Of a DNA stretch of 64,000 bases, positions 45,511 to 62,725 are shown one piece after another. A model generated the notes under the pieces. It was not told the DNA's origin. It made no database searches and was given only the letters and a program-made list of their open reading frames with translations. Numbering within the stretch: the first letter of the stretch is position 1; each line of letters starts with the position of its first letter. The stretch lies in the NCBI GenBank assembly GCA_937992055.1, contig CALKLQ010000055.1, positions 362-64,361 on the forward strand. Direction: 5' to 3'. The DNA comes from an uncultured Clostridia bacterium. GTDB taxonomy: Bacteria > Bacillota > Clostridia > Christensenellales > UBA1242. Both the position numbers and the translations under genes were made by a program.

Positions 45511-46401
45511 TTACCTCATCAAATATAATTTAGCTAATATTGCTAATCCTTTTTCTTTTTCAGATTTTATAATTTCTCCTTTACTTATCATTCGGTTTAA
45601 TGCTTTGTCGATTAGTAAAGCATCTTGTTTGTTTATATCACTTCTGCCCAAAATTGCAGAAATTGGTACATTATTAACTTCTTCATTATTAAAGGATAGT
45701 TCTTTTAACTTATCAACATTTTCCTTTACTAATTTTACCATTGCAAGAAAAGTTGTTGATGGATTTTTGATATTTAAACACTTTGAAATAGTAGTTGTAA
45801 TTTCCAAATAATTATCATAATCTCTCATACTTGCTAAAATATGATTATTGTTTAGTAAATCTGAAATATTTTTAAAAGTTTCTTTGATATATTTTATCTC
45901 TTCAGGAAGAAATAACAAACTCATTGCTTGATATGTTAGATTTGGAACTTTAAAATCTTTTTCAACTTCTTTGCAAAAATTAACAAATTCATCGGTCAAG
46001 CCAGAATATTCTTTGAATTCTAAGCTTTCTAGTTCTCCATACAATCTTCTTAATAATTCTTCATCATCTTGTCCAGAAATAGAATTATGGCTCAACTGAA
46101 TTGCTAATGCTTGCTCTTTCGATAATCTATCTTTGCATAACATAACTTCAATTTCTTCAAGTCCAGCATCAATAGATGCTATAACTCTATGATTACCAGA
46201 TAAAACTTCTATTTCTTTATTTTTATTGTAAAAACAAAACGGAACAGAAGTTAGTTGTCCATCTTTTTTAATATTGGCAACTAATTTTTGATATTCTTCT
46301 GGTTTCATATATCTCGCATTTACTTCAAGTAATTTAATATCTTTGGGATTTATTTTTATAATTTCTGTTTCCATAACTCCAATCCTTCCTTTAATCTCCA
46401 T
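45511..46401 (-). CDS. ParB-like nuclease domain protein
   Basis: The N-terminus (INPKDIKLLEVNARYMKPEEYQKLVANIKKDGQLTSVP...VLSGNHRVIASIDAGLEEIEVML) matches the ParB/Srx N-terminal domain pattern. An alternative start at 46374 (METEII...) is possible. Overlaps the upstream gene. Confidence 0.7.
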   Translation of the reverse strand: MEIKGRIGVMETEIIKINPKDIKLLEVNARYMKPEEYQKLVANIKKDGQLTSVPFCFYNKNKEIEVLSGNHRVIASIDAGLEEIEVMLCKDRLSKEQALAIQLSHNSISGQDDEELLRRLYGELESLEFKEYSGLTDEFVNFCKEVEKDFKVPNLTYQAMSLLFLPEEIKYIKETFKNISDLLNNNHILASMRDYDNYLEITTTISKCLNIKNPSTTFLAMVKLVKENVDKLKELSFNNEEVNNVPISAILGRSDINKQDALLIDKALNRMISKGEIIKSEKEKGLAILAKLYLMR

Positions 46402-47567
46402 TTTCCCAATCGTGATACATAAGTTAAATTATAACTTCCATCTTGCATTTGATTTCTATCTTGTAAAGTGAATAAATCTCTATATTTTACAGATGACATA
46501 TTTTTAGTGAATACATTAGTAAAGACTGTTTTAATTTCTCTATTTGATAATCTTTCTGCTAACAATTTAACTTCTTTGCTTAAGACACAATACAAAACGA
46601 GCTTGCTCAATTTTTTTATATTTGAATTAGAGAAGTCTGATAATAAATAAATACAAGGTTGTTCTATCTCTTTTGGTGGCTTATTTCTGTAATCAGTTGT
46701 TAAACCAAAAACTCCAAATAATTTATTATTAGAAAATACTCCATAACAGGCTTTTGGAATTCCTAAATAGTGTATTTGTTTACTTAAATATTTTTGTCTT
46801 AAAGAATTAAATTGTGTTAAAGTCAATTGTTTAATTTCAACTCTTTCTATATTTTCATCTTCAATAATGTTAAACGATTTTTGAATTATGATTGAATTCG
46901 TCTTGTTTGATATTAGTTTTGATTTTATATTGATGTTAGAGTATATATTTAAATTTTTAGACTTTAAAATTTGATTTTGCTTTGTGAATGTTAAATCATT
47001 TTTAGATATAATAACAAAAGTAATATTTAAATCATACATTAGCTCAATTAATTTATCTTTTACAAAATTATGACTTCTGTTATCTACAATTAACAAATCT
47101 TTATCAGATATATATTTTATAAATTCTTCCAATTTAACATCTTTAAACTCTTTTATTTGTAAAGGTATTATGTTGATTTGACTTTTAATTTCACTTATTA
47201 ACTTGTTTTTATTTTTAACAACATTATTATAAATCCTAACATTGTGTTCGTTGTTTTCCCTTGGTTTATAATTCTTATAAATTACTGACATTGCAAGTTT
47301 TTCAATTTCGCTTATTTCACAATTTGTATCTAATTTAAAATCCTTATAAATTTCTTCACTTAATTTTAAATCAGAATTATAACTGAAATATTTACCAATT
47401 AAAACATTGCAAAAATCATCATCGCCACCAATAATTGGTGACGATGTTCGATTATATATTAACTTTTCTAATTCTAAATTTTCTGACCCATAAACATAAA
47501 TTTGTTTATATTCTTTTTGTTTAATTATATCAAAAATGTAATTGTTCACTATTGTTTTTGTTCTCAT
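46356..47567 (-). CDS. hypothetical protein (403 aa), phage-island associated
   Basis: Long ORF in operon-like overlap with both neighbours (38 nt and 46 nt). No motif I can name. The C-terminal third is (HYLGIPKACYGVF...LFGVFGL...IYLLSDF). Confidence 0.6.
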   Translation of the reverse strand: MRTKTIVNNYIFDIIKQKEYKQIYVYGSENLELEKLIYNRTSSPIIGGDDDFCNVLIGKYFSYNSDLKLSEEIYKDFKLDTNCEISEIEKLAMSVIYKNYKPRENNEHNVRIYNNVVKNKNKLISEIKSQINIIPLQIKEFKDVKLEEFIKYISDKDLLIVDNRSHNFVKDKLIELMYDLNITFVIISKNDLTFTKQNQILKSKNLNIYSNINIKSKLISNKTNSIIIQKSFNIIEDENIERVEIKQLTLTQFNSLRQKYLSKQIHYLGIPKACYGVFSNNKLFGVFGLTTDYRNKPPKEIEQPCIYLLSDFSNSNIKKLSKLVLYCVLSKEVKLLAERLSNREIKTVFTNVFTKNMSSVKYRDLFTLQDRNQMQDGSYNLTYVSRLGKWRLKEGLELWKQKL

Positions 47568-47919
47568 TTTCTAATTCTTCTACTTTTATTCCTAAATTAT
47601 CTTCAAACCATTTTGCCACAATTCTTCTGTGACAAAAAGTTTTTCCTTGTTTAATATCTGACCATTTTTCGTAACATAATAAAACAGCATTATCTCCAAG
47701 TTCCTGATATACTTCTTGTGGATTAAGTATGTTTAAAACATTTTCATAATACAACTTTGTATAAAATTCTTCATCTTCTATTTTAATAATTTCAGCTGGT
47801 GGAGCGAGCAATTTAAACTCTTCACCTTTCCAAAACCTATTAAATCTTGCAATAGACACAAATTTGTATCCTTTATCTTTAGGATAACTTTTAATTTGTC
47901 CAAAATAACCTGTAAACAT
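47530..47919 (-). CDS. DUF488-like protein
   Basis: Start set to ATG 47919 (AAGAGGTG RBS 6 nt upstream). The track start 47943 is TTG. MFTGYFGQIK...VSIARFNRFWKG...LAPP...VLLCYEKW...FCHRRIVAKWFEDNLGIKVEEL matches the recalled phage and Firmicute DUF488 pattern (LLC-x-E...CHRxxVAxWL). Confidence 0.55.
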   Translation of the reverse strand: MFTGYFGQIKSYPKDKGYKFVSIARFNRFWKGEEFKLLAPPAEIIKIEDEEFYTKLYYENVLNILNPQEVYQELGDNAVLLCYEKWSDIKQGKTFCHRRIVAKWFEDNLGIKVEELENENKNNSEQLHF

Positions 47920-47939
47920 AAAGCACCTCTTATTTTTCT

Positions 47940-48113
47940 TCAAACATTTTTTAATGTTTTTAAACGGCCATTGCGTGGCTCTGGCTTTCCAAAGTAGTCC
48001 TCACCCTTTTTTTGCAAAGTGTGAGGCGCATAACAATATTTGCATCTATGACTGCATCCTATATAAATATTAAGTGCATAAGGACTATATTCTCTTGCCA
48101 TTCCACATGGCAT
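47940..48113 (-). pseudogene. remnant of the 5' end of the radical SAM gene (copy a)
   Basis: 57-codon ORF MPCGMAREYSPYALNIYIGCSHRCKYCYAPHTLQKKGEDYFGKPEPR-NGRLKTLKNV*. The first 47 residues come from a 141-nt block identical to 50057..50197 inside the intact gene. Homology then ends. Confidence 0.8.
47971..48111. repeat. 141-nt repeat R1, copy a (identical to 50057..50197)
   Basis: Base-by-base comparison of the two stretches (ttgcgtggctctggctttcc...ttccacatggc) shows no mismatch by eye. Confidence 0.85.
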
Positions 48114-48190
48114 GAAGATAAATCAAATTTTACATATCAATTTGAAAACGATTATAAAATTTCAACATTTGTTGCTGTCACATAAATTGT
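48103..48190. repeat. 88-nt repeat R2, copy a (87/88 identical to 51058..51145)
   Basis: ccacatggcatgaagataaatcaaatttTacatatcaatttgaaaacgattataaaatttcaacatttgttgctgtcacataaattgt, with a single T/C difference. Covers the last 13 codons of the 104/105-aa genes, the spacer and the start of the radical SAM remnant. Confidence 0.85.
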
Positions 48191-48466
48191 GGTATCCTGA
48201 TCATCATCAAGAATGATTTCAATCATATTTCTCTGCCCTTTTACTTTCCAAATATTTAAAATATATTCGTCAATTTTGTTTAAAGGCTTTGAACATTTAA
48301 CATCTCTCACTTTAGAAAATTTTATCTCAATAGTTTTTTGCTGTTCATCAAAGTAAGGACTTGCTTCAAGTCTAAAACTAAACTCTTTTTCTTTTTCATT
48401 GTAATAAAGATTACTAATTTTACTATCATGAAAATTATAATTTTTAACAAAAATATTTAATGTCAT
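48152..48466 (-). CDS. small FHD-motif protein, immunity-like (104 aa)
   Basis: AGGAG RBS. Paralog of 51107..51424, with shared NFHD...FILNIW-VKGQ-NMIEII-DDD--TTIYVTATNVEIL. No signal peptide or TM segment. Confidence 0.7.
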   Translation of the reverse strand: MTLNIFVKNYNFHDSKISNLYYNEKEKEFSFRLEASPYFDEQQKTIEIKFSKVRDVKCSKPLNKIDEYILNIWKVKGQRNMIEIILDDDQDTTIYVTATNVEIL

Positions 48467-48633
48467 TTTACTCCTATTGCCAATAAACTTTACTATATAT
48501 CACTAACAATAAAATTTTTACAAAAGAACTCAATAAAAAACCAATCTGAAACATGTTTATCACGTCTTTTTTAACCCAATTATCTAATCCAAATAACACA
48601 CTGAATTTTTTACTTGATTAATATACTTTATTT

Positions 48634-48873
48634 TCAAAAAATCAATTGAATTTTCATCTTTAATAATATGTTCATATCTGCATAAGACAACAGTTGTGAA
48701 ACATCATTGAATTCAATTATGTATCCCTTTAAATTTTTGTTATCTTTTTCTAGTTCTTCAATTTGCCACTCGCAATATTCAAAATAAATTCTTAAATGAT
48801 TTTCTTTTTTAACAAATTTAATATCTTTTATAATTTCATCGTGTAAGAAGTAACTTCTTTCAAATTCTTTTAT
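48634..48873 (-). pseudogene. degraded FHD-motif gene lacking an in-frame start
   Basis: My translation gives an 82-aa open frame ...AIKEFERSYFLHDEIIKDIKFVKKENHLRIYFEYCEWQIEELEKDNKNLKGYIIEFNDV...* with no in-frame ATG near its 5' end. An AGGAG followed by ATG CCA TAA lies one frame off at its 5' end, consistent with a 1-nt indel. Confidence 0.4.
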
Positions 48874-48886
48874 GGCATTTGTGCTC

Positions 48887-49303
48887 CTAATTTTTTATTT
48901 GATAGCTCAACTTTTTACTGACAATATATGTTGAATTAACTTTCTTTAAATTTAAATCGTCCTCAATGTTATCAACATCCTTGACAAAAACAAAACTATT
49001 ATTTTTTAGATATATATTTCCTCCAAAAATTAAGCTATCAAAATTTTTTAAAACTGGTTTTATTACAGCTTTTGAAATAAGCTCAAACTTTAGTTTAATG
49101 GTTCCACACCAACATCCCTCTATCACCATAATAATTTCTGCTTTGTCATCACTTGGATGTGTCCAGCCATTTGAAGAATAAGAGCCTGAAACATAGTTTA
49201 TTGACTTTATCACACCATCGTGAAAATAGCCTGCTTCATCAAGAAAACTCTTTAATTCTTCTTTATTGTTTATATTTGTATACATATTTTTCTCCAAATT
49301 CAT
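48887..49303 (-). CDS. small FHD-motif protein, immunity-like (138 aa)
   Basis: ORF with an N-terminal ...LDEAGYFHDGVIKSINY... motif shared with the 104/105-aa proteins. No signal peptide or TM segment. Confidence 0.6.
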   Translation of the reverse strand: MNLEKNMYTNINNKEELKSFLDEAGYFHDGVIKSINYVSGSYSSNGWTHPSDDKAEIIMVIEGCWCGTIKLKFELISKAVIKPVLKNFDSLIFGGNIYLKNNSFVFVKDVDNIEDDLNLKKVNSTYIVSKKLSYQIKN

Positions 49304-49380
49304 TCTAATGCTTATTTTAAAATCATCTATTCAATATCTTATGATAATGGACCTTTCCTCTCCATCCTAGCATAAATTTT

Positions 49381-50214
49381 TTAATTGGATATTTCATCAA
49401 ATAAGCTTATTTGTTCGCTTGGCTTTATTCTCACAACATATTCATCTGGATTTTTTTCTTGTGGAGTGAGAACAACATTTGGAGCGAGTTTACGCAGACA
49501 AAACTTATAATATACTTGCTTGCCAGTTGGACGAAGCAAATCTACACAATCTTGCAAATATTTTGCCCAGTCTTGCCACTTATCTTCACGTTTATAGTTA
49601 TTTATTTTTCCAATCTTATAATGATCAACGCAGTCCAATTCAAGTGTCCTGCGAATAAGACCCAAACTTTCTTCTGGTTCAATTGTCGGCTCAAAACTTG
49701 CAAAAGTCTTTATTCCATGGTCATGCAATATTTTCAATGTTTCTAATCTATCTTGTGGCAAACTCGCATTTGGCTCCCAAAGTTTGCTTTTTTCTTCATC
49801 CAAAAATGTCAGTGTTGTGCCAATTGTAATACGGTCACCAAACTCTTTAAAAACATCCAAATCCCGCAGCATTTTCTTGCCACCCTTGGAAAGTATAGCA
49901 ACAGGCACGTTAAATGAGTTCAGCATTTTCAAAACTTCTCTAACCGTCTGTCCATCATCTGCACTATCACAATAACAGTCACCAACAAAAGATAAAAGCA
50001 CTTGCTCGGTGTATGTATTTTTTTTCAAGTCTTTTTCTAAAATTTTCAAAATATTTTTGCGTGGCTCTGGCTTTCCAAAGTAGTCCTCACCCTTTTTTTG
50101 CAAAGTGTGAGGCGCATAACAATATTTGCATCTATGACTGCATCCTATATAAATATTAAGTGCATAAGGACTATATTCTCTTGCCATTCCACATGGCCTG
50201 TAAATAACACTCAT
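49381..50214 (-). CDS. radical SAM protein, SPL/COG1533-like
   Basis: NIYIGCSHRCKYCYAP is a CxxxCxxC cluster in the context typical of the DNA-photolyase-like radical SAM group. Start set to ATG 50214 (MSVIYRPCGMAREY...). The 39 upstream codons of the track ORF are low complexity and overlap another small ORF. Confidence 0.75.
   Translation of the reverse strand: MSVIYRPCGMAREYSPYALNIYIGCSHRCKYCYAPHTLQKKGEDYFGKPEPRKNILKILEKDLKKNTYTEQVLLSFVGDCYCDSADDGQTVREVLKMLNSFNVPVAILSKGGKKMLRDLDVFKEFGDRITIGTTLTFLDEEKSKLWEPNASLPQDRLETLKILHDHGIKTFASFEPTIEPEESLGLIRRTLELDCVDHYKIGKINNYKREDKWQDWAKYLQDCVDLLRPTGKQVYYKFCLRKLAPNVVLTPQEKNPDEYVVRIKPSEQISLFDEISN
50057..50197. repeat. 141-nt repeat R1, copy b (inside the intact radical SAM gene)
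   Basis: Identical to 47971..48111. Confidence 0.85.
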
Positions 50215-50248
50215 GCGAATATTATAGCATAAAAGGCCATAATTTTTA

Positions 50249-50383
50249 TTAATATAATACATCAAATTTAATATTTTTATAATCAAACTGCAATTCATCG
50301 TAGTCATCATTATCCAAAATGATATAAGCATTATATTTGTTTATTTTTAAATCCAAAACAAATTGGTTATAAATGAGAGGCAT
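50249..50383 (-). CDS. 44-aa acidic ORF following the toxin stub (possible immunity remnant)
   Basis: MPLIYNQFVLDLKINKYNAYIILDNDDYDELQFDYKNIKFDVLY*, starting 8 nt after the stub's stop. Too short to be sure it is expressed. Confidence 0.25.
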   Translation of the reverse strand: MPLIYNQFVLDLKINKYNAYIILDNDDYDELQFDYKNIKFDVLY

Positions 50384-50391
50384 TACTTTCC

Positions 50392-50493
50392 TTAGGACAT
50401 TGATTTCCGTACTTTGTCTAAATATTCATCCCATCTACCTGTCGAATTTGGATTCTCCGCGTGATAATGATCAGTTCCACTTATAGCAATTAG
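50392..50493 (-). pseudogene. C-terminal stub of a third toxin-like module
   Basis: The frame opens right after the stop of the 127-aa gene: LIAISGTDHYHAENPNSTGRWDEYLDKVRKSMS*. It aligns with LSGNKGKDHYHWRNPNSKNDKDFYLDRYG of the intact copy. No start codon or leader. Confidence 0.55.
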
Positions 50494-50501
50494 CTAGTTT
50501 T

Positions 50502-50885
50502 TTATTTAAGTTTTTCGATTTCTTCTTTGCTTAGTTTTTCCCATTTTATTGGGAAATTGTGATAATTCAAGAATATCGTTTGATTTTTTCTCCACTTACA
50601 TTTTTCTGTTTTATTTTTTACCTTTAAAATTTTGAAGTAAAACTCATAATATTCTTCATAATCTGGATCATTTAATTCTAAATCATTATCTGAATCACCG
50701 TATCCCTCAAACTCGACATACAAAATTGTTCCATCTTTGAATTCAAGTTGCTGATACTTTGGCCACTTCCCTAAAGCGCCTAGAAATTCTATATAATAGC
50801 CGATTATATTACCTTCATACGGATTCCACCAAATCGCCTTTTCCCCATTATCGTAAATCCACTCATTTTTTTTATTTAACCTCAT
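50502..50885 (-). CDS. small acidic hypothetical protein, immunity-like (127 aa)
   Basis: GGAGAG RBS. No signal peptide or TM segment. Acidic stretch GYGDSDNDLELNDPDYEEYYEF. Preceded by a 14-codon orphan tail (YHVVPAPPNGWDLN*). Confidence 0.55.
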   Translation of the reverse strand: MRLNKKNEWIYDNGEKAIWWNPYEGNIIGYYIEFLGALGKWPKYQQLEFKDGTILYVEFEGYGDSDNDLELNDPDYEEYYEFYFKILKVKNKTEKCKWRKNQTIFLNYHNFPIKWEKLSKEEIEKLK

Positions 50886-50954
50886 AGTTCTCTCCTTTAA
50901 TTAAGATCCCATCCATTTGGAGGTGCGGGAACAACATGATATCAATAACTGCCT

Positions 50955-51068
50955 TCATGAAATCATTTTGCAAAGTGTGGGCGCATGACAATATCTGCAT
51001 CTATGACTGCATTCTATATTAATATTAAGCCCATAAGAACTAAATTCTCTCGCCATGCCACATGGCAT
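50955..51068 (-). pseudogene. degenerate remnant of the 5' end of the radical SAM gene (copy c)
   Basis: MPCGMAREFSSYGLNINIECSHRCRYCHAPTLCKMIS*. Diverged and frameshifted relative to the intact MSVIYRPCGMAREYSPYALNIYIGCSHRCKYCYAPHTL. Confidence 0.7.
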
Positions 51069-51145
51069 GAAGATAAATCAAATTTCACATATCAATTTGA
51101 AAACGATTATAAAATTTCAACATTTGTTGCTGTCACATAAATTGT
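51058..51145. repeat. 88-nt repeat R2, copy c
   Basis: 87/88 identical to 48103..48190. Confidence 0.85.
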
Positions 51146-51424
51146 TGTACATTCATCATCATCAAAAATTATTTCAATCATATTTGCTTGACCTTTTACA
51201 TTCCAAATATTCAAAATAAAATCATCAAGATCTGTAAGTTCCTTTTTGCATTTTATATCTATTACGTTATAAAATTTTATAATATAGCATTTGCTTGTTT
51301 CAAATCCAGAAACTTGGTTTGTAAATAATGTAAAAGTTAGTTCATTATCCTTTTTATTAAAAATAAAATTATTTGCTCTACAATCATGAAAATTATTCTC
51401 TTTAACAAATTTTCTTAGTTTCAT
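51107..51424 (-). CDS. small FHD-motif protein, immunity-like (105 aa)
   Basis: AAGGAG RBS. Paralog of 48152..48466. Lies directly downstream of the nonsense-mutated toxin-like gene. Confidence 0.7.
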   Translation of the reverse strand: MKLRKFVKENNFHDCRANNFIFNKKDNELTFTLFTNQVSGFETSKCYIIKFYNVIDIKCKKELTDLDDFILNIWNVKGQANMIEIIFDDDECTTIYVTATNVEIL

Positions 51425-51464
51425 TTTTTATCTCCTTTTAAGCCTAATAAATTTAATAGTTCTT

Positions 51465-51743
51465 CTAATGTAAGAGCACTTCAGGGCTATGCCTAGGTGC
51501 TGGATTTCCATTTTTATCTAAATAATAATCATTATTGCCGGTTTTATTTGGATTTGTCATGTGATAATGTTCAGGATCACCATTTCTTGCAGGATCCTTT
51601 CGAAATATTCGATTTGTTTTGTTGTCTCTATACTCTCTATGTCCATGCTCTCTTTGCCCTGGTCTTGACGTATCGCTAAATCTGCTTCCGCGAAAAGATC
51701 CACCACCGCCACCGCCAAAAAGTTATATATTAAATTTACTCAT
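51465..51743 (-). pseudogene. toxin-like gene copy 2, inactivated by an in-frame TAA at codon 7
   Basis: GGAGGGAG RBS then ATG AGT AAA TTT AAT ATA TAA CTT TTT GGC GGT GGC... The intact copy has ...TTA CAA CTT TTT GGC GGT GGC... The rest of the frame is open: LFGGGGGGSFRGSRF...DPEHYHMTNPNKTGNNDYYLDKNGNPAPRHSPEVLLH*. Confidence 0.7.
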
Positions 51744-51795
51744 ACTCCCTCCTCTAATCGTTCCACTTTTTGTGATTACAGGGGGATATTTTTAA
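51702..51795. repeat. 94-nt repeat R3, copy 2 (about 84 percent identical to 52851..52944)
   Basis: Hand alignment gives 79/94 matches. Covers the leader codons, the RBS and a relic of the last ~17 codons of the ParB-DUF4417 gene. Confidence 0.75.
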
Positions 51796-51798
51796 TAC

Positions 51799-52539
51799 TT
51801 ATCTTTCTCCTTTTGACATATTATCTATATAAAATTTGTAATAGTGAGAATCTATATATGTTATTTTATCAAGTTGAAATGAAACTTTATCTGATTTAAA
51901 TTTAATTGAATTTGTGGTTTCAATCCATCCAGCTTCAACGTCGTCAAAAGTTGTTATTATTGTTACTTCCCCGTTATTTTCTTTCAACGAAACAATTTCC
52001 CATTGATCATTATCAATATTTTTACCATAATATTCATTTACATTAAAAAATTTTATTATTAAATCCAAATCATTTTTGCTGGATATTGAAATTTTTTTAT
52101 TTTGAATCCAATTGTGAAAAAATATATGCATAGTTAATACTTTATCTTCGTTGTTGTATTGTAATCCGTAATTAGTTGACATTTCAAAATTTACATTATT
52201 CACATAAGACGAATCTTTCTTAAGAATATATTCTTTATCATCGTACAATAATTCAATATTGGGAAAATTTTGCTCGTTGAATTGCAACAAATCGCTCTTT
52301 CTCAATTTTGAATTTTTATTTTTCTTTAAAACTTTTAAAACCCTAAAACCAACATAAAATTTTTCTTTAAACACAAAAATTCTTTCAAAAATTGCATGCA
52401 CAATTTCATTATTATTTACAATAACATAAATAAATTTAAAGTTTTTGTCATTTTTTTCTTTTCTACAAATAAAATTATAAATTTTAGAATTTTTATCTAG
52501 TTTATTAATTTCTTTTAAAGTTAAATCTTTTATAATCAT
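51799..52539 (-). CDS. hypothetical protein (246 aa), candidate cognate immunity of the intact toxin-like gene
   Basis: Its ATG overlaps the upstream stop (ATGA at 52536..52539), suggesting translational coupling. No signal peptide or TM segment. The C-terminal half (MHIFFHNWIQNKKISI...EVTIITTFDD) loosely resembles the FHD-motif proteins. Confidence 0.6.
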   Translation of the reverse strand: MIIKDLTLKEINKLDKNSKIYNFICRKEKNDKNFKFIYVIVNNNEIVHAIFERIFVFKEKFYVGFRVLKVLKKNKNSKLRKSDLLQFNEQNFPNIELLYDDKEYILKKDSSYVNNVNFEMSTNYGLQYNNEDKVLTMHIFFHNWIQNKKISISSKNDLDLIIKFFNVNEYYGKNIDNDQWEIVSLKENNGEVTIITTFDDVEAGWIETTNSIKFKSDKVSFQLDKITYIDSHYYKFYIDNMSKGER

Positions 52540-52892
52540 TTTTTCGACCCTCCATATAAATGTGATCCTTTTGAATTTTTTTCTGTAGGATGTCCATATC
52601 TATCTAAATAAAAATCTTTATCGTTTTTACTATTAGGATTTCTCCAATGATAATGATCTTTGCCTTTGTTTCCTGATAGACCTTGTCGCCCTTTATGAAA
52701 TTCTACTTTATCTCCAGTTTTAGGATTATGATATTCCTTTACGTGTGGTGGTTTTCTTGGGTCTGTCACATCTCTCCAACCATTCCGTTCTAAATCTCGC
52801 GGGTTTTTGGGTAAACTATTGTAACTGTATTTAGTATACATGCCACTTGAACCACCGCCACCGCCAAAAAGTTGTAAGTTAAATTTAAACAT
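52536..52892 (-). CDS. small toxin-like protein with a Prp-type N-terminal leader (118 aa)
   Basis: AGGAGG RBS 5 nt before ATG 52892. The track start 52919 lies inside the upstream gene. MFKFNLQLFGGGGGSSGMYTKY...GDKVEFHKGRQGLSGNKGKDHYHWRNPNSKNDKDFYLDRYGHPTEKNSKGSHLYGGSKK. The start overlaps the ParB-DUF4417 stop by 8 nt. Confidence 0.7.
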   Translation of the reverse strand: MFKFNLQLFGGGGGSSGMYTKYSYNSLPKNPRDLERNGWRDVTDPRKPPHVKEYHNPKTGDKVEFHKGRQGLSGNKGKDHYHWRNPNSKNDKDFYLDRYGHPTEKNSKGSHLYGGSKK

Positions 52893-52944
52893 AATTCCTC
52901 CTAAAATCGTTCCACTCATTGTGATTGTAAGGGAATATTTTTAA
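52851..52944. repeat. 94-nt repeat R3, copy 1
   Basis: See 51702..51795. Confidence 0.75.
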
Positions 52945-53934
52945 ATTTCCACCCATTTTTGGAAATGGTTTATCATAACATATGATAGCACTTGGTTTTA
53001 CAATTTCCAACATTTTGTTATATCCTTTCATAAATTCCTCTTCAATTTTTTGCTTCCCAAAAGTTGCGACTGCAACAACACTTCCTTCTTCTACACCATC
53101 AAAACAAAATTCAAAGCTTTTTTCATCACTCCACTCAATCGTTGGAATAACCCTCAACCCTAAACTTTGCCAATATGCTCCACACCAACGATTTTTGAAA
53201 GTGTTTTTTATTTGCAAAGAAATTGACATATCTGTATACAAACTATAATCTGGCGTTAATAGGCAATAATATTGTTTTAATTTGTTAACTGCCAAATCTG
53301 GGTGTGAATACACATAATCAAATTTGTAGTCATATGTAAAAAATTGTATTGTTTTATCCATATTTTTAAAGTCGTTATATTTTGTGTTTGAAAAGTTCAT
53401 TAGTTTAATTTTTTCCAAATTAATGTCTTGCTTTTTGACAAGTGGCATTTGATATTTCCCAACCATTTCAAACTCATTTCTTGCAAGTTTTTGCTTATGT
53501 CTTGCAAGATAATCTCTAAAACTATCATTATCTATATTTAAATTTTCAAGTTTAGCGGTATTAACACCAAAACTTTCAAAATTGAAATTTTGCAGTTTTT
53601 TCAACTCTTGCAATAAAATGCCATCATCAAATCCCGTTTCCAAATTTACTGCGTTATGGGCAATCACATATGCTTGACGCTCTTCATCTGTCAAATGGTC
53701 AAGACGTACACATGGCAGTTTTTTAAGCCCCAACAATTTTGCGGCTTCAACTCTGCCATTTCCTTCCAAAACAACATTATCTTCGCCAGCTATGCCTAGT
53801 GGGTCATTAAAGCCAAATTCTTCAATTGAATTTGCAATGTGTCGTATCTGTTCTTTAGTATGAATTTTAGAGTTGTTTTCAAAATGCGTCAGTTCTGAAA
53901 TATCTACATAATCAATTTTTAAATCTTCTTTCAT
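52885..53934 (-). CDS. ParB-like nuclease domain / DUF4417 fusion protein
   Basis: Start set to ATG 53934 (AGGAGA RBS; MKEDLKIDYVDISELTHFENNSKIH...). The N-terminal ParB-like domain has NVVLEGNGRVEAAKLLGLKKLPCV. The C-terminal region FFTYDYKFDYVY...LTPDYSLYTDMSISLQIKNTFKNRWCGAYWQSLGLRVIPTIEWSDEKSFEFCFDG matches the recalled DUF4417 pattern. Confidence 0.7.
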   Translation of the reverse strand: MKEDLKIDYVDISELTHFENNSKIHTKEQIRHIANSIEEFGFNDPLGIAGEDNVVLEGNGRVEAAKLLGLKKLPCVRLDHLTDEERQAYVIAHNAVNLETGFDDGILLQELKKLQNFNFESFGVNTAKLENLNIDNDSFRDYLARHKQKLARNEFEMVGKYQMPLVKKQDINLEKIKLMNFSNTKYNDFKNMDKTIQFFTYDYKFDYVYSHPDLAVNKLKQYYCLLTPDYSLYTDMSISLQIKNTFKNRWCGAYWQSLGLRVIPTIEWSDEKSFEFCFDGVEEGSVVAVATFGKQKIEEEFMKGYNKMLEIVKPSAIICYDKPFPKMGGNLKIFPYNHNEWNDFRRNYV

Positions 53935-54380
53935 CTTTTTCTCCTTATTTCTGGCGTAAGCCTTAAATCTTTTAAAATCTTTTCCAGATGTTTGTTGCAA
54001 TCTAATAAAATTTTGTAGTGTTCATTTTCTTTAACAACAACTTTTGGAGTTTTCCCATCATTTGAAATTCCTGTAACAATTCTAATGTATCTTTCAGGAT
54101 TTTCATTCCATTTTTTCCAAGCCCTATCTCGCATAACTTTTAATTGACAATATTGCCAAATCAATTCAACATCAGACTCAGTTAGACAGTATTTAATACT
54201 TTTCTGTAATTGATTTACAATGCTTTTATAAACAATTTTTTCTTCGTCGGATAAATATTCCGGAACCTTCAAAATTTCATTATTCTGATTAATTCTTTCT
54301 TGTTCATATTTTTGCCACTGTAGATTCATCTCTTCTTTTCGTGTCTTTTCTTTCTTTTCATATTCTTCATCAAAAAACAT
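53931..54380 (-). CDS. phage terminase small subunit, P27 family-like
   Basis: Start set to ATG 54380 (AAAGGAGAAAAA RBS; the track start is TTG). VPEYLSDEEKIVYKSIVNQL...SDVELIWQYCQL...LLDCNKHLEKILKDLRLTPEIRRK fits the recalled P27-family layout ending in L-[GR]-L-T-P-x-x-R. Confidence 0.6.
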   Translation of the reverse strand: MFFDEEYEKKEKTRKEEMNLQWQKYEQERINQNNEILKVPEYLSDEEKIVYKSIVNQLQKSIKYCLTESDVELIWQYCQLKVMRDRAWKKWNENPERYIRIVTGISNDGKTPKVVVKENEHYKILLDCNKHLEKILKDLRLTPEIRRKR

Positions 54381-54660
54381 TTTTTCTCCTTTTATAATAC
54401 AAAAGGTTGAAAAGACAATTCGTCTTCTCAACCTTAATTTTATTTTATCTTATCATACAAATCATCAAAACTGCAAGAAAGTATGCCAACTTTTAATTTA
54501 ACTAATCATTTTCTGACTTTTATAAATTTAAATATAACTCTACTGTAATTTCTAAATATTGTATATCAAAAGCAATTCATTAATAAACAAGGAAAATTAA
54601 ATTAATCTATCTAAATTTAAGTTAGTTCGATATTTTGTTTATTATTCATATTCATTGCAA

Positions 54661-55380
54661 TCAATTTTTTAATTCTTTTACTTTTCCGTTTTTTATAGAA
54701 TATAATTCGCCATAATATTCAACATTGTTATTATCTAATAATATATATGAGCCGTTTGTCATACCAATAAATTCTTTTTCTTTTGAAAGTGGTAAAACAT
54801 AATCATTTATTACATCAATTTCCTCACAAGCAATTTGATATGTTTTTGTTTTGCCATCAAAATGTGGAATAATAATTTTACTAAAAAATCCCAAACCCTC
54901 AAGCCATCTAGGTTGGTCCAAATCACTATTTTCTTCAGGAAAATTAGCTACAGTCTTACACAAATTCATTGTACCAGCTGAAATACTAATCACTAAGCCT
55001 TTAAAATTTGTTAAAATTTCTTTCAAATGAATATGCTTAAAAAATTCAAGTTCGCACAAACATTTCCCACCACTTAAAATAATTAGATCTGCATCTTGCA
55101 ATATTTCTTTTGCAAAATTAAGATTTCTGCTGTCTAGTAAAATATTCTCTTTAAAGTGCAACCCTGTTTTATGAAAACTTTCACTCATCGACACAAATTT
55201 AATTTCATTTTCATCGAAGTTGTTAGGATCATTTGAAACATAAACAAACTTGTCATATTTTTTTATAAATTTCTTTATATTAGTCAGAATTTTATTTTTG
55301 TCTTCTATTGGAATAGAATGTCTTATATTATTTTCATCTTTATAATTTGTTTCTAATTGGCTTGTCAATATAAATGCCAT
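54661..55380 (-). CDS. peptidase S51 (dipeptidase E-like) family protein
   Basis: 239 aa. ADLIILSGGK and VISISAGTMN (nucleophile-elbow-like Ser) spaced as in S51 or class I amidotransferase-like folds. Confidence 0.55.
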   Translation of the reverse strand: MAFILTSQLETNYKDENNIRHSIPIEDKNKILTNIKKFIKKYDKFVYVSNDPNNFDENEIKFVSMSESFHKTGLHFKENILLDSRNLNFAKEILQDADLIILSGGKCLCELEFFKHIHLKEILTNFKGLVISISAGTMNLCKTVANFPEENSDLDQPRWLEGLGFFSKIIIPHFDGKTKTYQIACEEIDVINDYVLPLSKEKEFIGMTNGSYILLDNNNVEYYGELYSIKNGKVKELKN

Positions 55381-55394
55381 TTTTAATCTCCCAT

Positions 55395-56084
55395 TTACAT
55401 TTGTTTAGAAATTTTTAGTAGTTTATCTTTGTTTGCTTGGTTATAAAGTTCTTTTGTTTCAAAGTGCATAGCCACTAATTTTGAGGTATTTTCAAACTTT
55501 TTAATTTGCTCATAATCAATATGTGATTTAGGATAATTAGATATTTCAACATATATTTTTTTATAATTTTTATCATTATTTATTTTTTTAATATAATCCA
55601 AATCACGAGTATCACCACTATAATAATATTTGCCTTGCTCATCTTGAAATTCCACGCCAAAACACTCCAAATCAGGTGTGTGCAGAGTTTTCTTTGCTTT
55701 TATTATAATATTTTCAAATTTAATTTTGTTTGATGTGCTAAATTTATAATATTTTTTGTCTATGCCCATCATTTGAAGAAGTTTGTTTAAATGATTTATA
55801 AATGTTTTGCTATTAGCTAAAATTATCGGTGTTTTCTTAAAAACAATGCCGCATTGCCAAATCAGTGCGCCCAATCCAGATATATGGTCAGCATGGGTAT
55901 GGGTTATCACAATATAAATATTGTTTGTCTTATCACTCAACACTTTATTTTTTAACAATTTTTGCACGCAATTATAATTAGGGTCAATGACAACAAAATT
56001 ATTTTTTTCTATAAGCGCAGCACAATTAGGATAAAAATCTGAGTTTAAAGCTCCCCCAATTCCATAAAAAACCAAATCTTTCAT
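55395..56084 (-). CDS. MBL-fold metallo-hydrolase
   Basis: 229 aa. THTHADHISG (HxHxDH) plus downstream His/Asp (HTPD, YSGDT). Confidence 0.75.
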   Translation of the reverse strand: MKDLVFYGIGGALNSDFYPNCAALIEKNNFVVIDPNYNCVQKLLKNKVLSDKTNNIYIVITHTHADHISGLGALIWQCGIVFKKTPIILANSKTFINHLNKLLQMMGIDKKYYKFSTSNKIKFENIIIKAKKTLHTPDLECFGVEFQDEQGKYYYSGDTRDLDYIKKINNDKNYKKIYVEISNYPKSHIDYEQIKKFENTSKLVAMHFETKELYNQANKDKLLKISKQM

Positions 56085-57433: not shown

Positions 57434-58870
57434 TTAAATTTCATGTAGCTTTACATTTAGCAATTCATTTTTTATTTTTTTAAGTTTATCAGAAAGATTT
57501 ACCACATAAGTATGTGGGTTTACTAATCTCAACGCCTCTTCCCACAGGGTATTAAGTTCAGATTGAACCTTTTGGCGGGTTTGAGAAATACTTGGAATTT
57601 TATATATAATCTCTCCATTTTCCATCATTTTCTTGCGCAAATTGATTACTTTATAATCCTCAACATCTTTTGTTACCCAACTGTTATCTGGATGAGTTAA
57701 AGTGAGTTTACCTTTAGGCAATTCTTCATCGTAAACGCAAAGTAAATCATTTATAAGTTTTCCATCTCTATTGTAAATACGATAAATCTTTTTAAAATGT
57801 GGATTGGTTATCTTTTCAACATTGTCAGAAATTTTTATTTTTGGAACAATCTCATTGTTTTTTTCAATTGCAACAAGTTTATAAACTCCACCAAAAACTG
57901 GATTAGATTTACTTGTAATCAGATTTTCGCCCACTCCAAAGCTATCAATTGGAGCATTTTGCTCTATTAATGATGCAATAACATATTCATCTAAAGAGTT
58001 TGAAGTTACAATTTTTGTATCTTTCAAGCCTGCTTCATCCAACATTTTTCTTGACACCTTAGACAAATATGCCAAATCTCCACTATCGATTCTAATTCCA
58101 GCAAGTGTCTTGTTTTTTGGTTTTAGAACCTCGTTGTTAACCTTTATAGCATTTGGGATTCCACTATTTAAAGTATTATAAGTATCAACCAAAAAGGTAC
58201 TTGAGTTAGGAAAGCTTTCCGCATATGCTTTAAAAGCCTCATACTCGCTATCAAAACTTTGAATAAAGCTATGACCCATTGTGCCTAAAACGGGCACATT
58301 ATATTTTTTTCCTGTTTGGGTACATGCTGTGCCGTTTGCACCAGCTATGTATGCCGCCAAAGCCCCGTCTACAGCGGCAGATTCTCCTTGTGCTCTTCTG
58401 CTTCCAAATTCCATAACAGTTCTACCTTTAGCACTTCTAACAATTCTACTTGCCTTGGTCGTTATCAAACTATTATGATTAAAAAATATCAAAAGCGCGG
58501 TTTCAACAAGTTGAGCTTCAAGAAGGGGCGCCTTAATAGTAATCACTGGCTCATTTGGAAAAACTATGGTCCCATCTTCAACCGCCCACATGTCACCTGT
58601 GAATTTTATATTTTTTAATCTCTTTAAATAAGCTTCACTAAACAAATTTAAACTTTTCAAATAATCAATATCACTTTCAGAAAAGTGAAATTGTGACAAA
58701 TATTCAACACATTTATTTACCCCATTAGCAATTACAAAACTGCCACCATCAGGCACTTTTCTAAAAAACAAATCAAAATATGCGATATTATTATCAATTT
58801 TTTTATCAAAATATCCCTGTCCCATTGTTAACTCGTAAAAATCCATTACTAAATTATTAAATTCTTCCAT
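57434..58870 (-). CDS. pncB: nicotinate phosphoribosyltransferase
   Basis: 478 aa. N-terminal DFYELTMGQGYF, GTMGHSFIQSF and IRIDSGDLAYLS blocks typical of NAPRTase. Confidence 0.9.
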   Translation of the reverse strand: MEEFNNLVMDFYELTMGQGYFDKKIDNNIAYFDLFFRKVPDGGSFVIANGVNKCVEYLSQFHFSESDIDYLKSLNLFSEAYLKRLKNIKFTGDMWAVEDGTIVFPNEPVITIKAPLLEAQLVETALLIFFNHNSLITTKASRIVRSAKGRTVMEFGSRRAQGESAAVDGALAAYIAGANGTACTQTGKKYNVPVLGTMGHSFIQSFDSEYEAFKAYAESFPNSSTFLVDTYNTLNSGIPNAIKVNNEVLKPKNKTLAGIRIDSGDLAYLSKVSRKMLDEAGLKDTKIVTSNSLDEYVIASLIEQNAPIDSFGVGENLITSKSNPVFGGVYKLVAIEKNNEIVPKIKISDNVEKITNPHFKKIYRIYNRDGKLINDLLCVYDEELPKGKLTLTHPDNSWVTKDVEDYKVINLRKKMMENGEIIYKIPSISQTRQKVQSELNTLWEEALRLVNPHTYVVNLSDKLKKIKNELLNVKLHEI

Positions 58871-58911
58871 ATCATACTCCTATTTTTTTGTTTTTGAAAG
58901 CGACAATTATC

Positions 58912-59439
58912 TTATTTGCATTCAGTTATTACTCGCTTATTTAATATTTTTTCAATATCCTCTCTTGCTTCCGGCATAATAAATTTTTTATATTTTTCAT
59001 ATTCTTGTCGTATGTTTGTTCCGTGGACATTAATTGCATCTCTATCTATTGGGACAAACGTACACTGCGGAAAAAATTTATTAAGTTCCCTATAGCTTTC
59101 ATCTGCATATTTGTAATTAACCTCATATGGAACGCTTTTCCAAAATAATTTTGCGTAATCACTCATAAAATCTTTTGAGTTAACAATCTTTGACTCATCT
59201 ATCAGTGCAAAATGGATTTTTTTATTGTTTTTATAATGTCTTTTAAACCAATTGAGCCTTTGATTTGAATTGAAATAAGGGAAATTTGCCTCTTCACATT
59301 GTTTTTTACTTTTTTCAGGATTATCGGAAACGACAACAACACATTCATCACATTGTTTTAATACTTTATCAATAATGCTTAAATGCCCCATATGAGGTGG
59401 AAGAAATTTTCCAACAAATGCTCCTATTTTCTTAGCCAT
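58912..59439 (-). CDS. nicotinamide/nicotinate mononucleotide adenylyltransferase-like nucleotidyltransferase
   Basis: 175 aa. GKFLPPHMGHLS is a (H/T)xGH motif, and the C-terminal VHGTNIRQ is an ISxTxIR-like motif. Lies inside the NAD operon. Confidence 0.7.
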   Translation of the reverse strand: MAKKIGAFVGKFLPPHMGHLSIIDKVLKQCDECVVVVSDNPEKSKKQCEEANFPYFNSNQRLNWFKRHYKNNKKIHFALIDESKIVNSKDFMSDYAKLFWKSVPYEVNYKYADESYRELNKFFPQCTFVPIDRDAINVHGTNIRQEYEKYKKFIMPEAREDIEKILNKRVITECK

Positions 59440-60025
59440 TTTTAACCTCCAAAAATTTATTCTTATAGTAAAATAACTTTAATTGCAAGGCGCTTTGAAG
59501 TCCAAAATTGTGGTTGTCTACAAAGTTTAAAATATAATTTAATTCTATTTGGAAATAAGTTATATCCTCATCCACTTCCAGTTTTTGTTTTTTATCTAAC
59601 AAGACCTCCGCCTCAAAACATTCCACGGACTCGTCGCTAATACCCGCGCTTGTAAAACTATTTGCTTGAACTTTCTTCAAATTAATCACACTTGCACCTA
59701 TTTCCTCCTCTAATTCTCTCTTTACTGCCATGATAGGTTCTTCATTTTCCTCTACTAGTCCCGCTGGCAAGCCAAAAATATAATCATTTATTGCATACCT
59801 AAATTCCTTAATAACCACAAGGTAAATTTTATTATTTTTTTTGATATAAGGCAGAATTCTAACCGCGTCAACTATATCTTTAGATTTTGATTCCAAAGTT
59901 TGAAATTTTCTTCTTGAGGCAAAATAGTATTCTTTTTGTCTATTTTCATCCAAAATATATGTATATTTGTACAAATTTAAATATTTAACATTTGTAAGTT
60001 TTTTTATATTCACTAACTTTTTCAT
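59432..60025 (-). CDS. Nudix hydrolase (ADP-ribose pyrophosphatase-like)
   Basis: Intact Nudix box G-LVEEN-E-EPIMAVK-RELEEEIG. Overlaps both neighbours. Confidence 0.8.
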   Translation of the reverse strand: MKKLVNIKKLTNVKYLNLYKYTYILDENRQKEYYFASRRKFQTLESKSKDIVDAVRILPYIKKNNKIYLVVIKEFRYAINDYIFGLPAGLVEENEEPIMAVKRELEEEIGASVINLKKVQANSFTSAGISDESVECFEAEVLLDKKQKLEVDEDITYFQIELNYILNFVDNHNFGLQSALQLKLFYYKNKFLEVKNG

Positions 60026-60600
60026 AATATCTTCTCGAATTTATCAAAATTTTGAATTAATGCGCCCATTTTTTTCATATTCATAAGGGCTTTTTTATGA
60101 AGAATTTCTGCATTGTGATTCTCACTATTAAAGGTGTAGCAAGCGTTTTCATAAACAATTACTTTTGTAAAAAGATTGTTAGATTTAATATAATTAAGAT
60201 AACTTGACACAAAATTGATAACACAAATATCTGTGCAACATCCACATACAAAAACGTTGTCAAAATTGTTATTATTTATTAACCTTTTAAACTCTGGCGT
60301 TATAAAACCATTTGTTGTGTTTTTGTCTATAATATGGTCAAATAACTTTTCATATCTTTTCAGTTCAGGGATCAACTCACTTTCCTCACTACTCTTTATG
60401 CAATGAGGCGGGAAATCCTTAAATTCCTCATCAAAGACTTCATGGCAGTCTTTAAAAGCCACTACTTTATAATTGTTTTGTTTAGCTTTATTTATAGCAT
60501 TAACAATAGTAGGGGTAATTTTATTAATATTTTTATCTGCCAATGCCCCAAAATTAACAAAACCATTGACCATATCAATTACAACTAATAAATTTTTCAT
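60022..60600 (-). CDS. pncA: isochorismatase-family cysteine hydrolase, nicotinamidase-like
   Basis: 192 aa. LLVVIDMVNGF and VFVCGCCTDICV (catalytic Cys context). First gene of the operon with pncB. AAGGAG RBS. Confidence 0.75.
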   Translation of the reverse strand: MKNLLVVIDMVNGFVNFGALADKNINKITPTIVNAINKAKQNNYKVVAFKDCHEVFDEEFKDFPPHCIKSSEESELIPELKRYEKLFDHIIDKNTTNGFITPEFKRLINNNNFDNVFVCGCCTDICVINFVSSYLNYIKSNNLFTKVIVYENACYTFNSENHNAEILHKKALMNMKKMGALIQNFDKFEKIL

Positions 60601-61060: not shown

Positions 61061-61073
61061 ATGATAATATCAT
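61061..61073. promoter_or_regulatory. perfect palindrome ATGATA-A-TATCAT (operator candidate 1)
   Basis: Read directly. The arms atgata / tatcat are exact reverse complements. Confidence 0.4.
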
Positions 61074-61109
61074 ATTAAAATTATATTGTCAATAAATTTT
61101 ATAAACTTG

Positions 61110-61140: not shown

Positions 61141-61170
61141 CAATGAAAATATATTGTAGGAGAGAAAAAA

Positions 61171-62707: not shown

Positions 62708-62725
62708 AATACAAAGGAGAAAAAA

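Follow-up and report, generated by a model that had tools for sequence, protein, structure and literature searches.

A probable polymorphic toxin-immunity array behind a ParB-DUF4417 gene in a prophage remnant of a human-gut bacterium

Why would a prophage remnant carry intact and broken versions of one very small gene, each followed by a small partner ORF (open reading frame)? The question is raised by a 64,000-nucleotide (nt) stretch of contig CALKLQ010000055.1 from an uncultured Clostridia bacterium (the window; all coordinates are window positions, and the array described here, its terS-like gene, and its DUF4417 gene all lie on the minus strand). In this stretch, a terS-like gene (54431..53931) is followed by a gene that joins ParB-N to DUF4417 and then by an array of small ORFs, which a preliminary description of the sequence had compared to polymorphic toxin-immunity loci. 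The locus is an array inside a prophage remnant of a human-gut bacterium. With a probability of about 0.7, we read it as a polymorphic toxin-immunity array of small tagged toxins, and we propose that these toxins are loaded in a DUF4417-dependent manner. The array follows known polymorphic toxin architecture; the toxin and immunity pair was unannotated, and we found no description of a constant module made of DUF4417 and a leader.

Toxin and immunity families of the array

The first gene of the array encodes an intact protein of 118 amino acids (aa), Tox1, with the N terminus MFKFNLQLFGGGGGSS and a leader region that reads MFKFNLQLFGGGGGSSG. The protein comprises the segment MFKFNLQLF (residues 1 to 9), a Gly-rich leader, GGGGGSSG (residues 10 to 17), and a domain with a DHYH motif (residues ~22 to 114). 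An AGGAGG sequence lies 7 nt upstream of the ATG, and the start falls inside the last codons of the DUF4417 gene with an 8-nt overlap. As described previously, the stop overlaps the start of a 246-aa ORF as ATGA (52892..52536 and 52539..51799).

An exhaustive profile search with the domain, whose pattern is …GKDHYHxxNP…YLDxxGxP…SH, placed it in 522 protein clusters at an E value of ≤1e-3 and in 396 at ≤1e-10. It was C-terminal in every case, in host proteins of 100 to 1900 aa, and long carriers joined it to RHS repeats, PT-HINT, WXG100 plus PT-TG (LXG type), C39 plus RHS, or a phage portal protein. On a viral contig (L015), the domain sits on a MuF2 (Phage_min_cap2) protein and is followed by the partner, scaffold, and capsid genes. 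The closest relative (P0004 in locus L001) is a frameshifted orphan cassette after a ~1970-aa Rhs protein, with Rhs-core remnants upstream, and short copies that lack the leader occur in Bacillales as orphan cassettes of Rhs or LXG loci. The preliminary description had left it to profile and structure searches to say whether the 118-aa protein belongs to a phage structural family; the family is not structural, as its domain tips Rhs, LXG, PT-HINT, C39-Rhs, MuF2, and portal-fused proteins. We regard this ~90-residue DHYH domain as a predicted toxin tip that is widespread and unnamed.

In the family, G74, H80, H82, N85, P86, and H111 are invariant, and D79, Y81, D93, Y95, L96, D97, G100, P102, S107, and S110 are nearly so; Tox1 retains all of the invariant residues. 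Its AlphaFold (AF2) model has a predicted local distance difference test (pLDDT) score of 86 overall and >90 across the domain, which is mostly beta. A word-indexed search of 5.8 billion proteins returned only three close homologues of Tox1.

Searching all stop-to-stop ORFs of the window with the toxin-family profile gave exactly three places, with E values of 5.6e-35, 4e-17, and 1.9e-09, a result far beyond chance. The second place, Tox2, had been recognized earlier as a copy with an internal stop; codon 7 (51725-51723) reads TAA instead of the expected CAA, the domain has diverged in its N-terminal half, and a 105-aa ORF follows (51424..51107). We considered that this TAA might be recoded as Gln and rejected the idea: under the standard code the window has ORFs of great length, and Tox2 is degenerate in other respects too. 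We treat Tox2 as a pseudogene. The third place, Tox3 (~50481..50370), is the start-less stub of the preliminary description, here found to lie in two frames, and is followed by a 44-aa ORF.

Among species-representative genomes, a single partner family adjoins 54 of the 60 complete toxin copies. Its N-terminal pattern, M-x-[LI]-x-x-F-x-x-x-[YN]-x-[FL]-H-D-[SGC]…, is homologous across very different contexts. We built a profile from 52 partners and ran it both on a set of 7 sequences and window-wide; the window holds 5 or 6 members or fragments of the family. In the 246-aa Imm1, the family part is the C-terminal half (51874-52191), and the N-terminal ~110 aa lie outside the match. The 105-aa Imm2 and the 104-aa Imm4 are paralogues (56% identical), and an FxKxxxFHD motif of Imm2 recurs in the protein that partners the Rhs-orphan toxin of L001. 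These adjacency and profile data support the prediction that the partners are cognate immunity genes, with Imm1 cognate to Tox1. Of the further small ORFs noted earlier, the 104-aa ORF and the relic belong to this family, whereas the 138-aa ORF is at most a distant relative, given its marginal E value, and the 127-aa ORF did not match the immunity profile; the latter may represent a different immunity family as an orphan gene. The features, all on the minus strand, are as follows.

53931..54431, minus: terS-like small terminase subunit gene, 166 aa, immediately upstream of the DUF4417 gene (Pfam Terminase_4, E = 4.6e-06)
52885..54000, minus: ParB-N plus DUF4417 gene, the constant gene of the system (Pfam DUF4417, E = 4.2e-55)
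52536..52892, minus: Tox1, intact predicted toxin of 118 aa (family profile, E = 5.6e-35)
51799..52539, minus: Imm1, the 246-aa partner of Tox1 (immunity profile, E = 1.7e-07 in 7 sequences and 8e-05 window-wide)
51702..51795, minus: junction homology block, a DUF4417 3' remnant (~55 nt) plus the leader codons of cassette 2 (direct repeat D4)
51465..51743, minus: Tox2, displaced toxin pseudogene (profile, E = 4e-17)
51107..51424, minus: Imm2, immunity-family protein of 105 aa (immunity profile, E = 1.6e-10 in 7 sequences and 7e-08 window-wide)
50955..51068, minus: radical-SAM 5'-end fragment, the right-hand cassette boundary (repeat D1, 89% identical; the ORF translation matches the radical-SAM start)
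50502..50885, minus: 127-aa ORF (sole match phrog_34919, of unknown function, 3.4e-06)
50370..50481, minus: Tox3, start-less frameshifted stub spanning the DHYH…YLD core (profile, E = 1.9e-09, second frame 0.034; repeat D3)
50249..50383, minus: 44-aa ORF, probable C-terminal fragment of an immunity gene (weak match at profile positions 70-111; p ~3e-5 in the 7-sequence test, E = 0.12 window-wide)
49381..50214, minus: intact radical-SAM gene, the conserved right flank of the cassette site (Pfam Radical_SAM, E = 3e-12)
48887..49303, minus: 138-aa ORF with an FHDG motif (immunity profile, E = 0.0012 in 7 sequences and 0.37 window-wide)
48691..48873, minus: truncated immunity-family relic (profile positions 3-63, E = 2.3e-10 window-wide)
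48152..48466, minus: Imm4, orphan immunity-family protein of 104 aa (profile, E = 6.6e-14 in 7 sequences and 4e-11 window-wide)
47940..48113, minus: second radical-SAM 5'-end fragment, the end of the array (repeats D1 and D2, 89-90% identical)

The homology blocks that had been noticed at the cassette junctions are real repeats. The last ~55 nt of DUF4417 and the leader codons recur before Tox2 (51702-51795 versus 52851-52944, 84% identical), and an immunity-gene 3' end joined to the first 100 to 190 nt of the radical-SAM gene occurs three times (47933-48121, 50019-50207, and 50980-51068; 89-90% identical). A second human-gut metagenome contig has an identical gene order and identical called ORF lengths up to the limit of that contig at about window position 50250.

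Comparison with related genomes showed the swapping of toxin and partner between fixed flanks that had been suggested as a check on the locus. In its nearest relative, L082 (DUF4417 81% identical), the order is terS, ParB-DUF4417, a small leader ORF, a partner of 116 aa unlike that of the window, and the radical-SAM gene as in the window; with this homologue as a guide, we placed the probable radical-SAM start in the window at MSVIYRPCGMAREY…. The leader MKFNSQFFGGGG is retained in L082; the small ORF begins MKFNSQFFGGGGSSSG, and its C terminus differs (…HGNPKQHPKVPHDHDW). The same leader is found on unrelated C termini after DUF4417 or its 3' fragment in L007 (11147-11434), L048 (1225-1602 and 3571 onward), and L074 (4124-4378), and hhalign detected no relationship between the leader-bearing C termini that were compared. 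In L007 and L048, DUF4417 3' fragments stand before orphan cassettes.

Also in L082 (12829-15701, minus), a second, split DUF4417 gene lies on the opposite strand. After it come an ORF of 269 aa, a protein of 100 aa that is rich in His (…HKFPHDHYWDY…), and a pair of paralogous ORFs (148 to 157 aa) that resemble the 116-aa partner, one of them with a weak precomputed Cys_rich_CPCC match. This segment looks like a second toxin-immunity set.

The locus therefore has the polymorphic toxin-immunity architecture that was first proposed for it, as seen in the fusions to toxin tips, the partner in 54 of 60 copies, and the swapping in L082. A constant N terminus precedes variable toxins (the window versus L082; L007, L048, and L074), immunity genes lie immediately downstream (Imm1, Imm2, Imm4, and fragments in the window), and displaced or orphan cassettes with junction homology are present (Tox2, Tox3, Imm4, and the repeats). 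Pfam, NCBIfam, PHROG, and PADLOC gave no usable match for Tox1 or any partner ORF, which agrees with the earlier statement that Tox1 has no known trafficking domain.

What might the toxin do? T4 endonuclease VII has the pattern DHDH…N. In the DHYH domain, the invariant H80, H82, and H111 occur with N85 and P86 and the nearly invariant D79, so that the '[ED]H, H, H' pattern is present that defines Tox-EHHH, which has an HNH/EndoVII fold and is paired with Imm50 (Zhang et al. 2012, PMC3482391); Ntox24 is also listed with Imm50 in that study. We favor a metal-dependent nuclease on account of this [D]H-x-H…N…H pattern and its likeness to EndoVII, which together suggest that the Tox1 domain may be HNH/EndoVII-like. 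The domain is also mostly beta, as predicted, and its Rhs, HINT, WXG/LXG, and MuF delivery repertoire and the weak Imm50 match of its partner resemble what is listed for Ntox24. Against membership in Tox-HNH-EHHH or Ntox24, a Pfam search of 51 family members with E values of up to 5 gave only noise and no HNH-EHHH, EndoVII, or Ntox24 model, and the Imm50 match, found once in Pfam, scored 15.6 bits against a cutoff of 27.1 (DUF6258 was also sub-threshold). Searching PDB sequences with the toxin profile gave only chance ribosomal matches, and the top Foldseek match of the toxin model was a chain of a contact-dependent inhibition (CDI) complex (probability 0.35). The preliminary guess of an HNH or EndoVII nuclease thus fits the residue pattern and the weak Imm50 signal, but model and fold searches did not confirm it.

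We also asked whether the DHYH toxin, a 'HGNPKxHP..PHxHxW' toxin of L082 and L074, and a 131-aa phage cargo protein ('PHTHHGY') form one His-rich superfamily, and we rejected this grouping because hhalign probabilities were <2%.

The Gly-rich leader and the upstream DUF4417 gene

In the literature, DUF4417 is listed solely as a domain of unknown function that is fused to ParB and enriched in phages (10.1101/2025.10.10.680097). In the window, the ParB_N match of the gene is weak in Pfam, the same gene matches PHROG 940, and database gene calls place its start at 53934, which gives a 349-aa protein. The DUF4417 part was modeled by AF2 as an alpha/beta domain with a pLDDT score of 90.5. Foldseek found no significant match for it in the PDB, although weak matches to tRNA-guanine transglycosylases recurred there (probability, 0.5 to 0.66), and in BFVD it matched a phage 'queuine tRNA-ribosyltransferase' (E = 0.019). 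A DUF4417 sequence profile found nothing in the PDB, and we take the modeled likeness to tRNA-guanine transglycosylase as a lead, not an assignment.

The constant part of the toxins is a short Gly-rich leader, GG[R/G]G-x-S-S-G. Every leader-bearing short toxin that we examined comes immediately after a DUF4417 gene, in most cases with an overlap of its stop, and in the loci selected by toxin, nearly all DUF4417 genes with an intact 3' end are followed by a leader ORF that overlaps or abuts the stop. The class of leader tracks the DUF4417 subfamily and not the toxin type, with MG.G..G.FG.T.G and MSKG.S..F.GT.G as two classes and M.KFNLQLFGG.G.SSG as the one found in the lineage of the window. 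Such overlap of the DUF4417 stop, or spacing of a few bases from it, suggests that the toxin gene may be translationally coupled to DUF4417.

As a control for selection bias, we picked 80 IMG/VR loci by DUF4417 alone, 79 of which were usable. One to four leader ORFs were present within 2.5 kb downstream on the same strand in 63 of these 79 phage loci, and the first leader ORF started between -35 and +50 nt from the DUF4417 stop in 52 of the 63. There were 105 leader ORFs in 199 kb downstream of DUF4417 versus 9 in 1247 kb elsewhere; many of the sampled phage loci are mutually related, so these counts are not independent events. The DHYH toxin and its partner occurred in none of these loci picked by DUF4417. 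Tox1 belongs to the leader class that we propose on this basis, defined by a start at -35 to +50 nt from the DUF4417 stop and an N terminus of the form M-GG[RG]G… or …(L/I)Qx(F/H)-GG[RG]G…. The preliminary description overlooked that this leader is a tag of general occurrence, linked to the DUF4417 gene that precedes it. A full-text literature search found no description of this association, and the papers on MuF toxins, polyvalent proteins, and S8-PTS do not mention it.

The phage leader ORFs begin MGGRGASSG… or …NLQxF-GGRG… and carry diverse C termini. Among these are ADPrib_exo_Tox (2.4e-15), an ADP-ribosyltransferase (ART) domain, and a Gln_amidase/Tox-PL1 glutamine deamidase (2.2e-11); further cargo includes a JAB-like protein with HxH…S..D and an HExxH protein, both recognized by eye, and a common 131-aa family. 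One leader ORF matches an internal segment of a 1879-position PHROG profile. MuF fusions and polyvalent proteins have a similar repertoire (PMC3482391, PMC5512222). The ORFs that combine the leader with an ART or deamidase domain follow one another directly near packaging genes and have no partners, and two intact phage contigs have the order regulator, ParB-DUF4417, leader ORFs, and terS/terL/portal (L090, and L109, in which no terS was identified). A25_23 of Streptococcus phage A25 truly begins with MGGRGASSGMSDKG…; from this start the gene overlaps DUF4417 (A25_22) by 35 nt, and it precedes terS; relatives of A25_23 occur in 30 phage records, all annotated 'hypothetical'. In pneumococcal phage MM1, the GGRGA motif is internal and follows an N-terminal domain of ~65 residues.

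How the leader would be exposed can be read from its position. The GGRG core directly follows the initiator Met in 61 of 89 distinct phage contexts, several more of which use GTG or TTG, and in most of the others x(L/I)Qx(F/H) immediately precedes the core. The protease Prp cleaves at MLxx(D/N)LQ(F/L)F'A(S/H)KK, a site used by capsid and scaffold proteins of phage 80alpha, the scaffold reading KFNLQFF'A (PMC9405229). The window sequence MFKFNLQLF'GGGGG fits the P side of this motif, with Gly at P1' in place of the usual Ala or Ser, and relatives have the prefixes MKFNSQFF'G, MKFVLQLF'G, and MKINIQLF'G. MFKFNLQLF is therefore similar on the P side to the substrates L27 and 80alpha, unlike them in the Gly at P1' and in the Gly-rich tract that replaces A(S/H)KK; most family members also differ in starting MGGRG…. 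We infer from this comparison that MFKFNLQLF is a putative Prp-type propeptide of nine residues. Either Met removal from the MGGRG… forms or Prp cleavage would expose the same Gly-Gly N terminus.

Some phage loci depart from this simple arrangement. A domain of ~65 to 90 residues (…F.D.ELY…) lies between DUF4417 and GGRG in L170 (MM1, 1543-2289), L089, L097, L108 to L111, L137, and L162, either fused before the GGRG cargo (MM1 ORF29) or as a separate 89-aa ORF, and it may be a further component of the system or a propeptide. In mycobacteriophage D29 (L167, 392-2097), gene 1 at the left genome end, annotated 'nuclease', is a DUF4417 homologue of a type found in hundreds of cluster-A mycobacteriophages and Gordonia phages. 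No Gly-rich leader is present on gp2 (260 aa), which the following gene encodes, so the coupling rule may not hold in actinophages.

Delivery of the toxins and competing explanations

Under the reading of a polymorphic toxin-immunity array, Tox1 would be the live toxin and Imm1 its cognate immunity protein. New cassettes would have recombined in, pushing Tox2 with Imm2, Tox3 with an immunity fragment, the immunity relic, and Imm4 downstream, with the DUF4417 3' end and leader as the homology arm on one side and the radical-SAM 5' end on the other; orphan immunity genes would have been kept after displacement. DUF4417 may recognize or process the leader N terminus and load the small protein to travel with the DNA of the element, most likely inside the virion, a route presumed for MuF- and portal-fused toxins as well. 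Protection of the producer and of related lysogens would fall to the immunity protein. The pairing of toxin and immunity genes, the displacement of cassettes, the genetic coupling of leader and DUF4417, and the proximity to packaging genes in phages are observed. For delivery, DUF4417-dependent loading for co-transfer with the element's DNA would be the likeliest route, and loading into the virion requires the fewest assumptions, given that MuF2 and portal proteins carry this toxin as a fusion.

This arrangement has parallels in known systems. Like MuF toxins (PMC3482391; Jamet et al. 2017, PMC5576092), it is phage borne, has swappable C termini with a downstream immunity gene, lies beside terS, terL, and portal genes, and shares Tox-PL1 and ART cargo; the L015 contig even has the same DHYH toxin and immunity pair fused to MuF2. 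Unlike MuF toxins, Tox1 has no MuF domain (no PF04233 or PF06152 match in Pfam), the constant part is a leader of 8 to 17 residues on a separate small protein coupled to DUF4417, and the trio of DUF4417, toxin, and immunity gene is also found outside phages. With Rhs and LXG loci of the type VII secretion system (T7SS), the array shares the toxin and immunity families (L001, P0006, and P0007), cassette displacement, homology to the 3' end of the constant gene, and orphan immunity arrays. It differs from them in that the window has no YD shell, LXG, or WXG100 domains, DUF4417 is a separate and unfused ORF, and a second homology arm lies in the downstream radical-SAM gene. Short tags or dedicated upstream genes also steer effectors in the capsid-targeting sequences of T4 (internal proteins and Alt) and in the adaptors of type VI secretion systems (T6SS; DUF4123, DUF1795, and DUF2169). 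The logic of these systems is alike, with no sequence relationship to DUF4417 and its leader.

Several observations weigh against the toxin-immunity reading and the mechanism proposed with it. No Pfam, NCBIfam, PHROG, or PADLOC model covers the toxin domain; Foldseek gave no significant PDB match for the Tox1 model (best E = 0.34) and no His-Me finger; and the nuclease assignment draws on a residue pattern and an Imm50 match below threshold (E = 0.018). To these come the Gly at P1' of the putative Prp site, the relatedness among the sampled phage loci, and the absence of terL, portal, and capsid genes from the island in the window. Trios without nearby capsid genes also exist in a defense island (L007), at chromosomal sites (L009), and on an integrative element (L011 to L013), so virion loading cannot be the whole story. 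The L007 trio (7976-12442) lies beside AAA_21/SMC_N ATPase, GmrSD, and type I restriction-modification genes, and the element of L011 to L013 has a relaxase, an integrase, and a type III-like restriction-modification system; the carriers are thus not phages alone.

These trios outside phages, together with the island's lack of capsid genes, keep a live rival in which the trio is an intracellular three-part toxin-antitoxin or abortive-infection module with DUF4417 as sensor or regulator, the partner as antitoxin, and a toxin that stays in the cell. The toxin has no secretion signal or known trafficking domain, some trios sit in defense islands (type I restriction-modification, GmrSD, and AAA_21) or integrative elements, the proteins resemble those of toxin-antitoxin systems in their small size and single domain, and some polymorphic toxin domains, e.g., Ntox24, also occur in such systems (Zhang et al. 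2012, PMC3482391). We nevertheless think this account unlikely, as the same domain tips Rhs, LXG, PT-HINT, MuF2, and portal proteins, and some leader forms keep an apparent PT-TG pre-toxin segment, judged against the PT-TG region of P0007 only. Arrays of displaced cassettes with orphan immunity genes moreover typify loci of competition between cells, and the ART and deamidase leader ORFs of phages are partnerless and stand back to back beside packaging genes. It is quite improbable that the array arose by duplication of a single accessory cassette and that all of its copies, Tox1 included, are now nonfunctional remains. Decay would fit the clear damage to two of the three toxin copies, the loss of terL, portal, and capsid genes from the island, and the number of close Tox1 homologues, just three in 5.8 billion proteins. 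Yet no invariant or nearly invariant residue of the 522-cluster family is missing from Tox1, whose gene has a good Shine-Dalgarno sequence and is joined to both neighbors by coupled stop/start overlaps. Imm1, Imm2, and Imm4 are intact, and the gene order and ORF lengths recur in the second gut metagenome contig as far as it extends.

The leader itself admits other interpretations. The match of NLQLF to motifs of the 80alpha capsid and scaffold proteins, and the neighboring terS, terL, and portal genes, would suit proteins of phage head assembly or structure rather than toxins, a reading to which we give very little weight: the C-terminal domains are enzymatic and mutually unrelated (ART, Tox-PL1, JAB-like, and DHYH), the DHYH domain occurs on bacterial Rhs and LXG toxins with a cognate partner, and a phage may have anywhere from 0 to 4 leader ORFs. 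Even harder to credit is a bacteriocin-type double-glycine export signal cut by a C39-peptidase ABC transporter. The leader does end in GG, and one long member (P0074) carries a C39 domain, but the GG mostly follows Met directly (in the window, a 9-residue prefix) and not a leader of 15 to 30 residues, an LSxxELxxIxGG-like consensus is absent, and no C39 ABC transporter was found in the window or near the loci examined.

Beyond the polymorphic toxin-immunity array itself, we raise the tentative possibility that DUF4417 and the GG[R/G]G leader form a widespread, unrecognized cargo-delivery module of phages and mobile elements, with the cargo injected into the next cell. In such a module, DUF4417 would pass on to the departing DNA or virion any small protein whose leader had been exposed by Met removal or Prp cleavage. 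The phage cargo might then be take-over or anti-defense enzymes (ART, deamidase, and JAB-like), and the island may have co-opted the module for polymorphic toxins. A bolder variant, a long shot at best, has DUF4417 tethering the free N-terminal glycine of the cargo to DNA itself; it draws solely on the weak fold likeness of DUF4417 to tRNA-guanine transglycosylase/DpdA and on the ParB fusion. If the toxin-immunity reading is right, a polymorphic toxin can be reduced to a protein of ~115 residues whose constant part is a tag of 8 to 17 residues, and surveys based on domains would miss such toxins. The analysis brings out two unannotated families, the toxin domain (522 clusters) and its immunity family, and offers a first functional context for DUF4417, which is present in hundreds of sequenced phages, including A25, MM1, and D29 (gene 1). 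It also draws a directly testable link between host Prp processing and phage cargo. If DUF4417 does load tagged proteins, this would be a general effector-delivery route for phages of Gram-positive bacteria and possibly an engineering handle.

Genes around the island

Directly upstream of terS (54661-56084, minus) are a gene of the metallo-β-lactamase (MBL) fold and an S51 peptidase gene. The precomputed Pfam matches of the MBL-fold gene include PF23023, Anti-Pycsar_Apyc1, a family of phage anti-defense cyclic-nucleotide phosphodiesterases, so the phage island may reach ~56.1 kb and carry an anti-defense gene. After the array (45511-47943, minus) lie genes for three proteins: one of 137 aa (phrog_2450), one of 403 aa that has GNAT-phage-like and DAM-like-phage1 domains, and one of 296 aa that is the second ParB-like protein. 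Together with ParB-DUF4417 and the radical-SAM gene, these look like a phage DNA-modification module.

Farther away, just upstream of rpoB (5290-8979) and rpoC (1735-5274), are two giant minus-strand ORFs of 3277 aa (9404-19237) and 6078 aa (19256-37492). At an E value of <1e-5, Pfam detected no domain in the 3277-aa ORF or in the first 3000 residues of the 6078-aa ORF, which has Gly-rich repeats of the GGGGGAGGNG type. The island is flanked at 57434-63478 by a block of NAD salvage genes (NAPRTase, CTP_transf_like, NUDIX, isochorismatase, PRPP-synthase-like, and NAD synthase), which is probably housekeeping.

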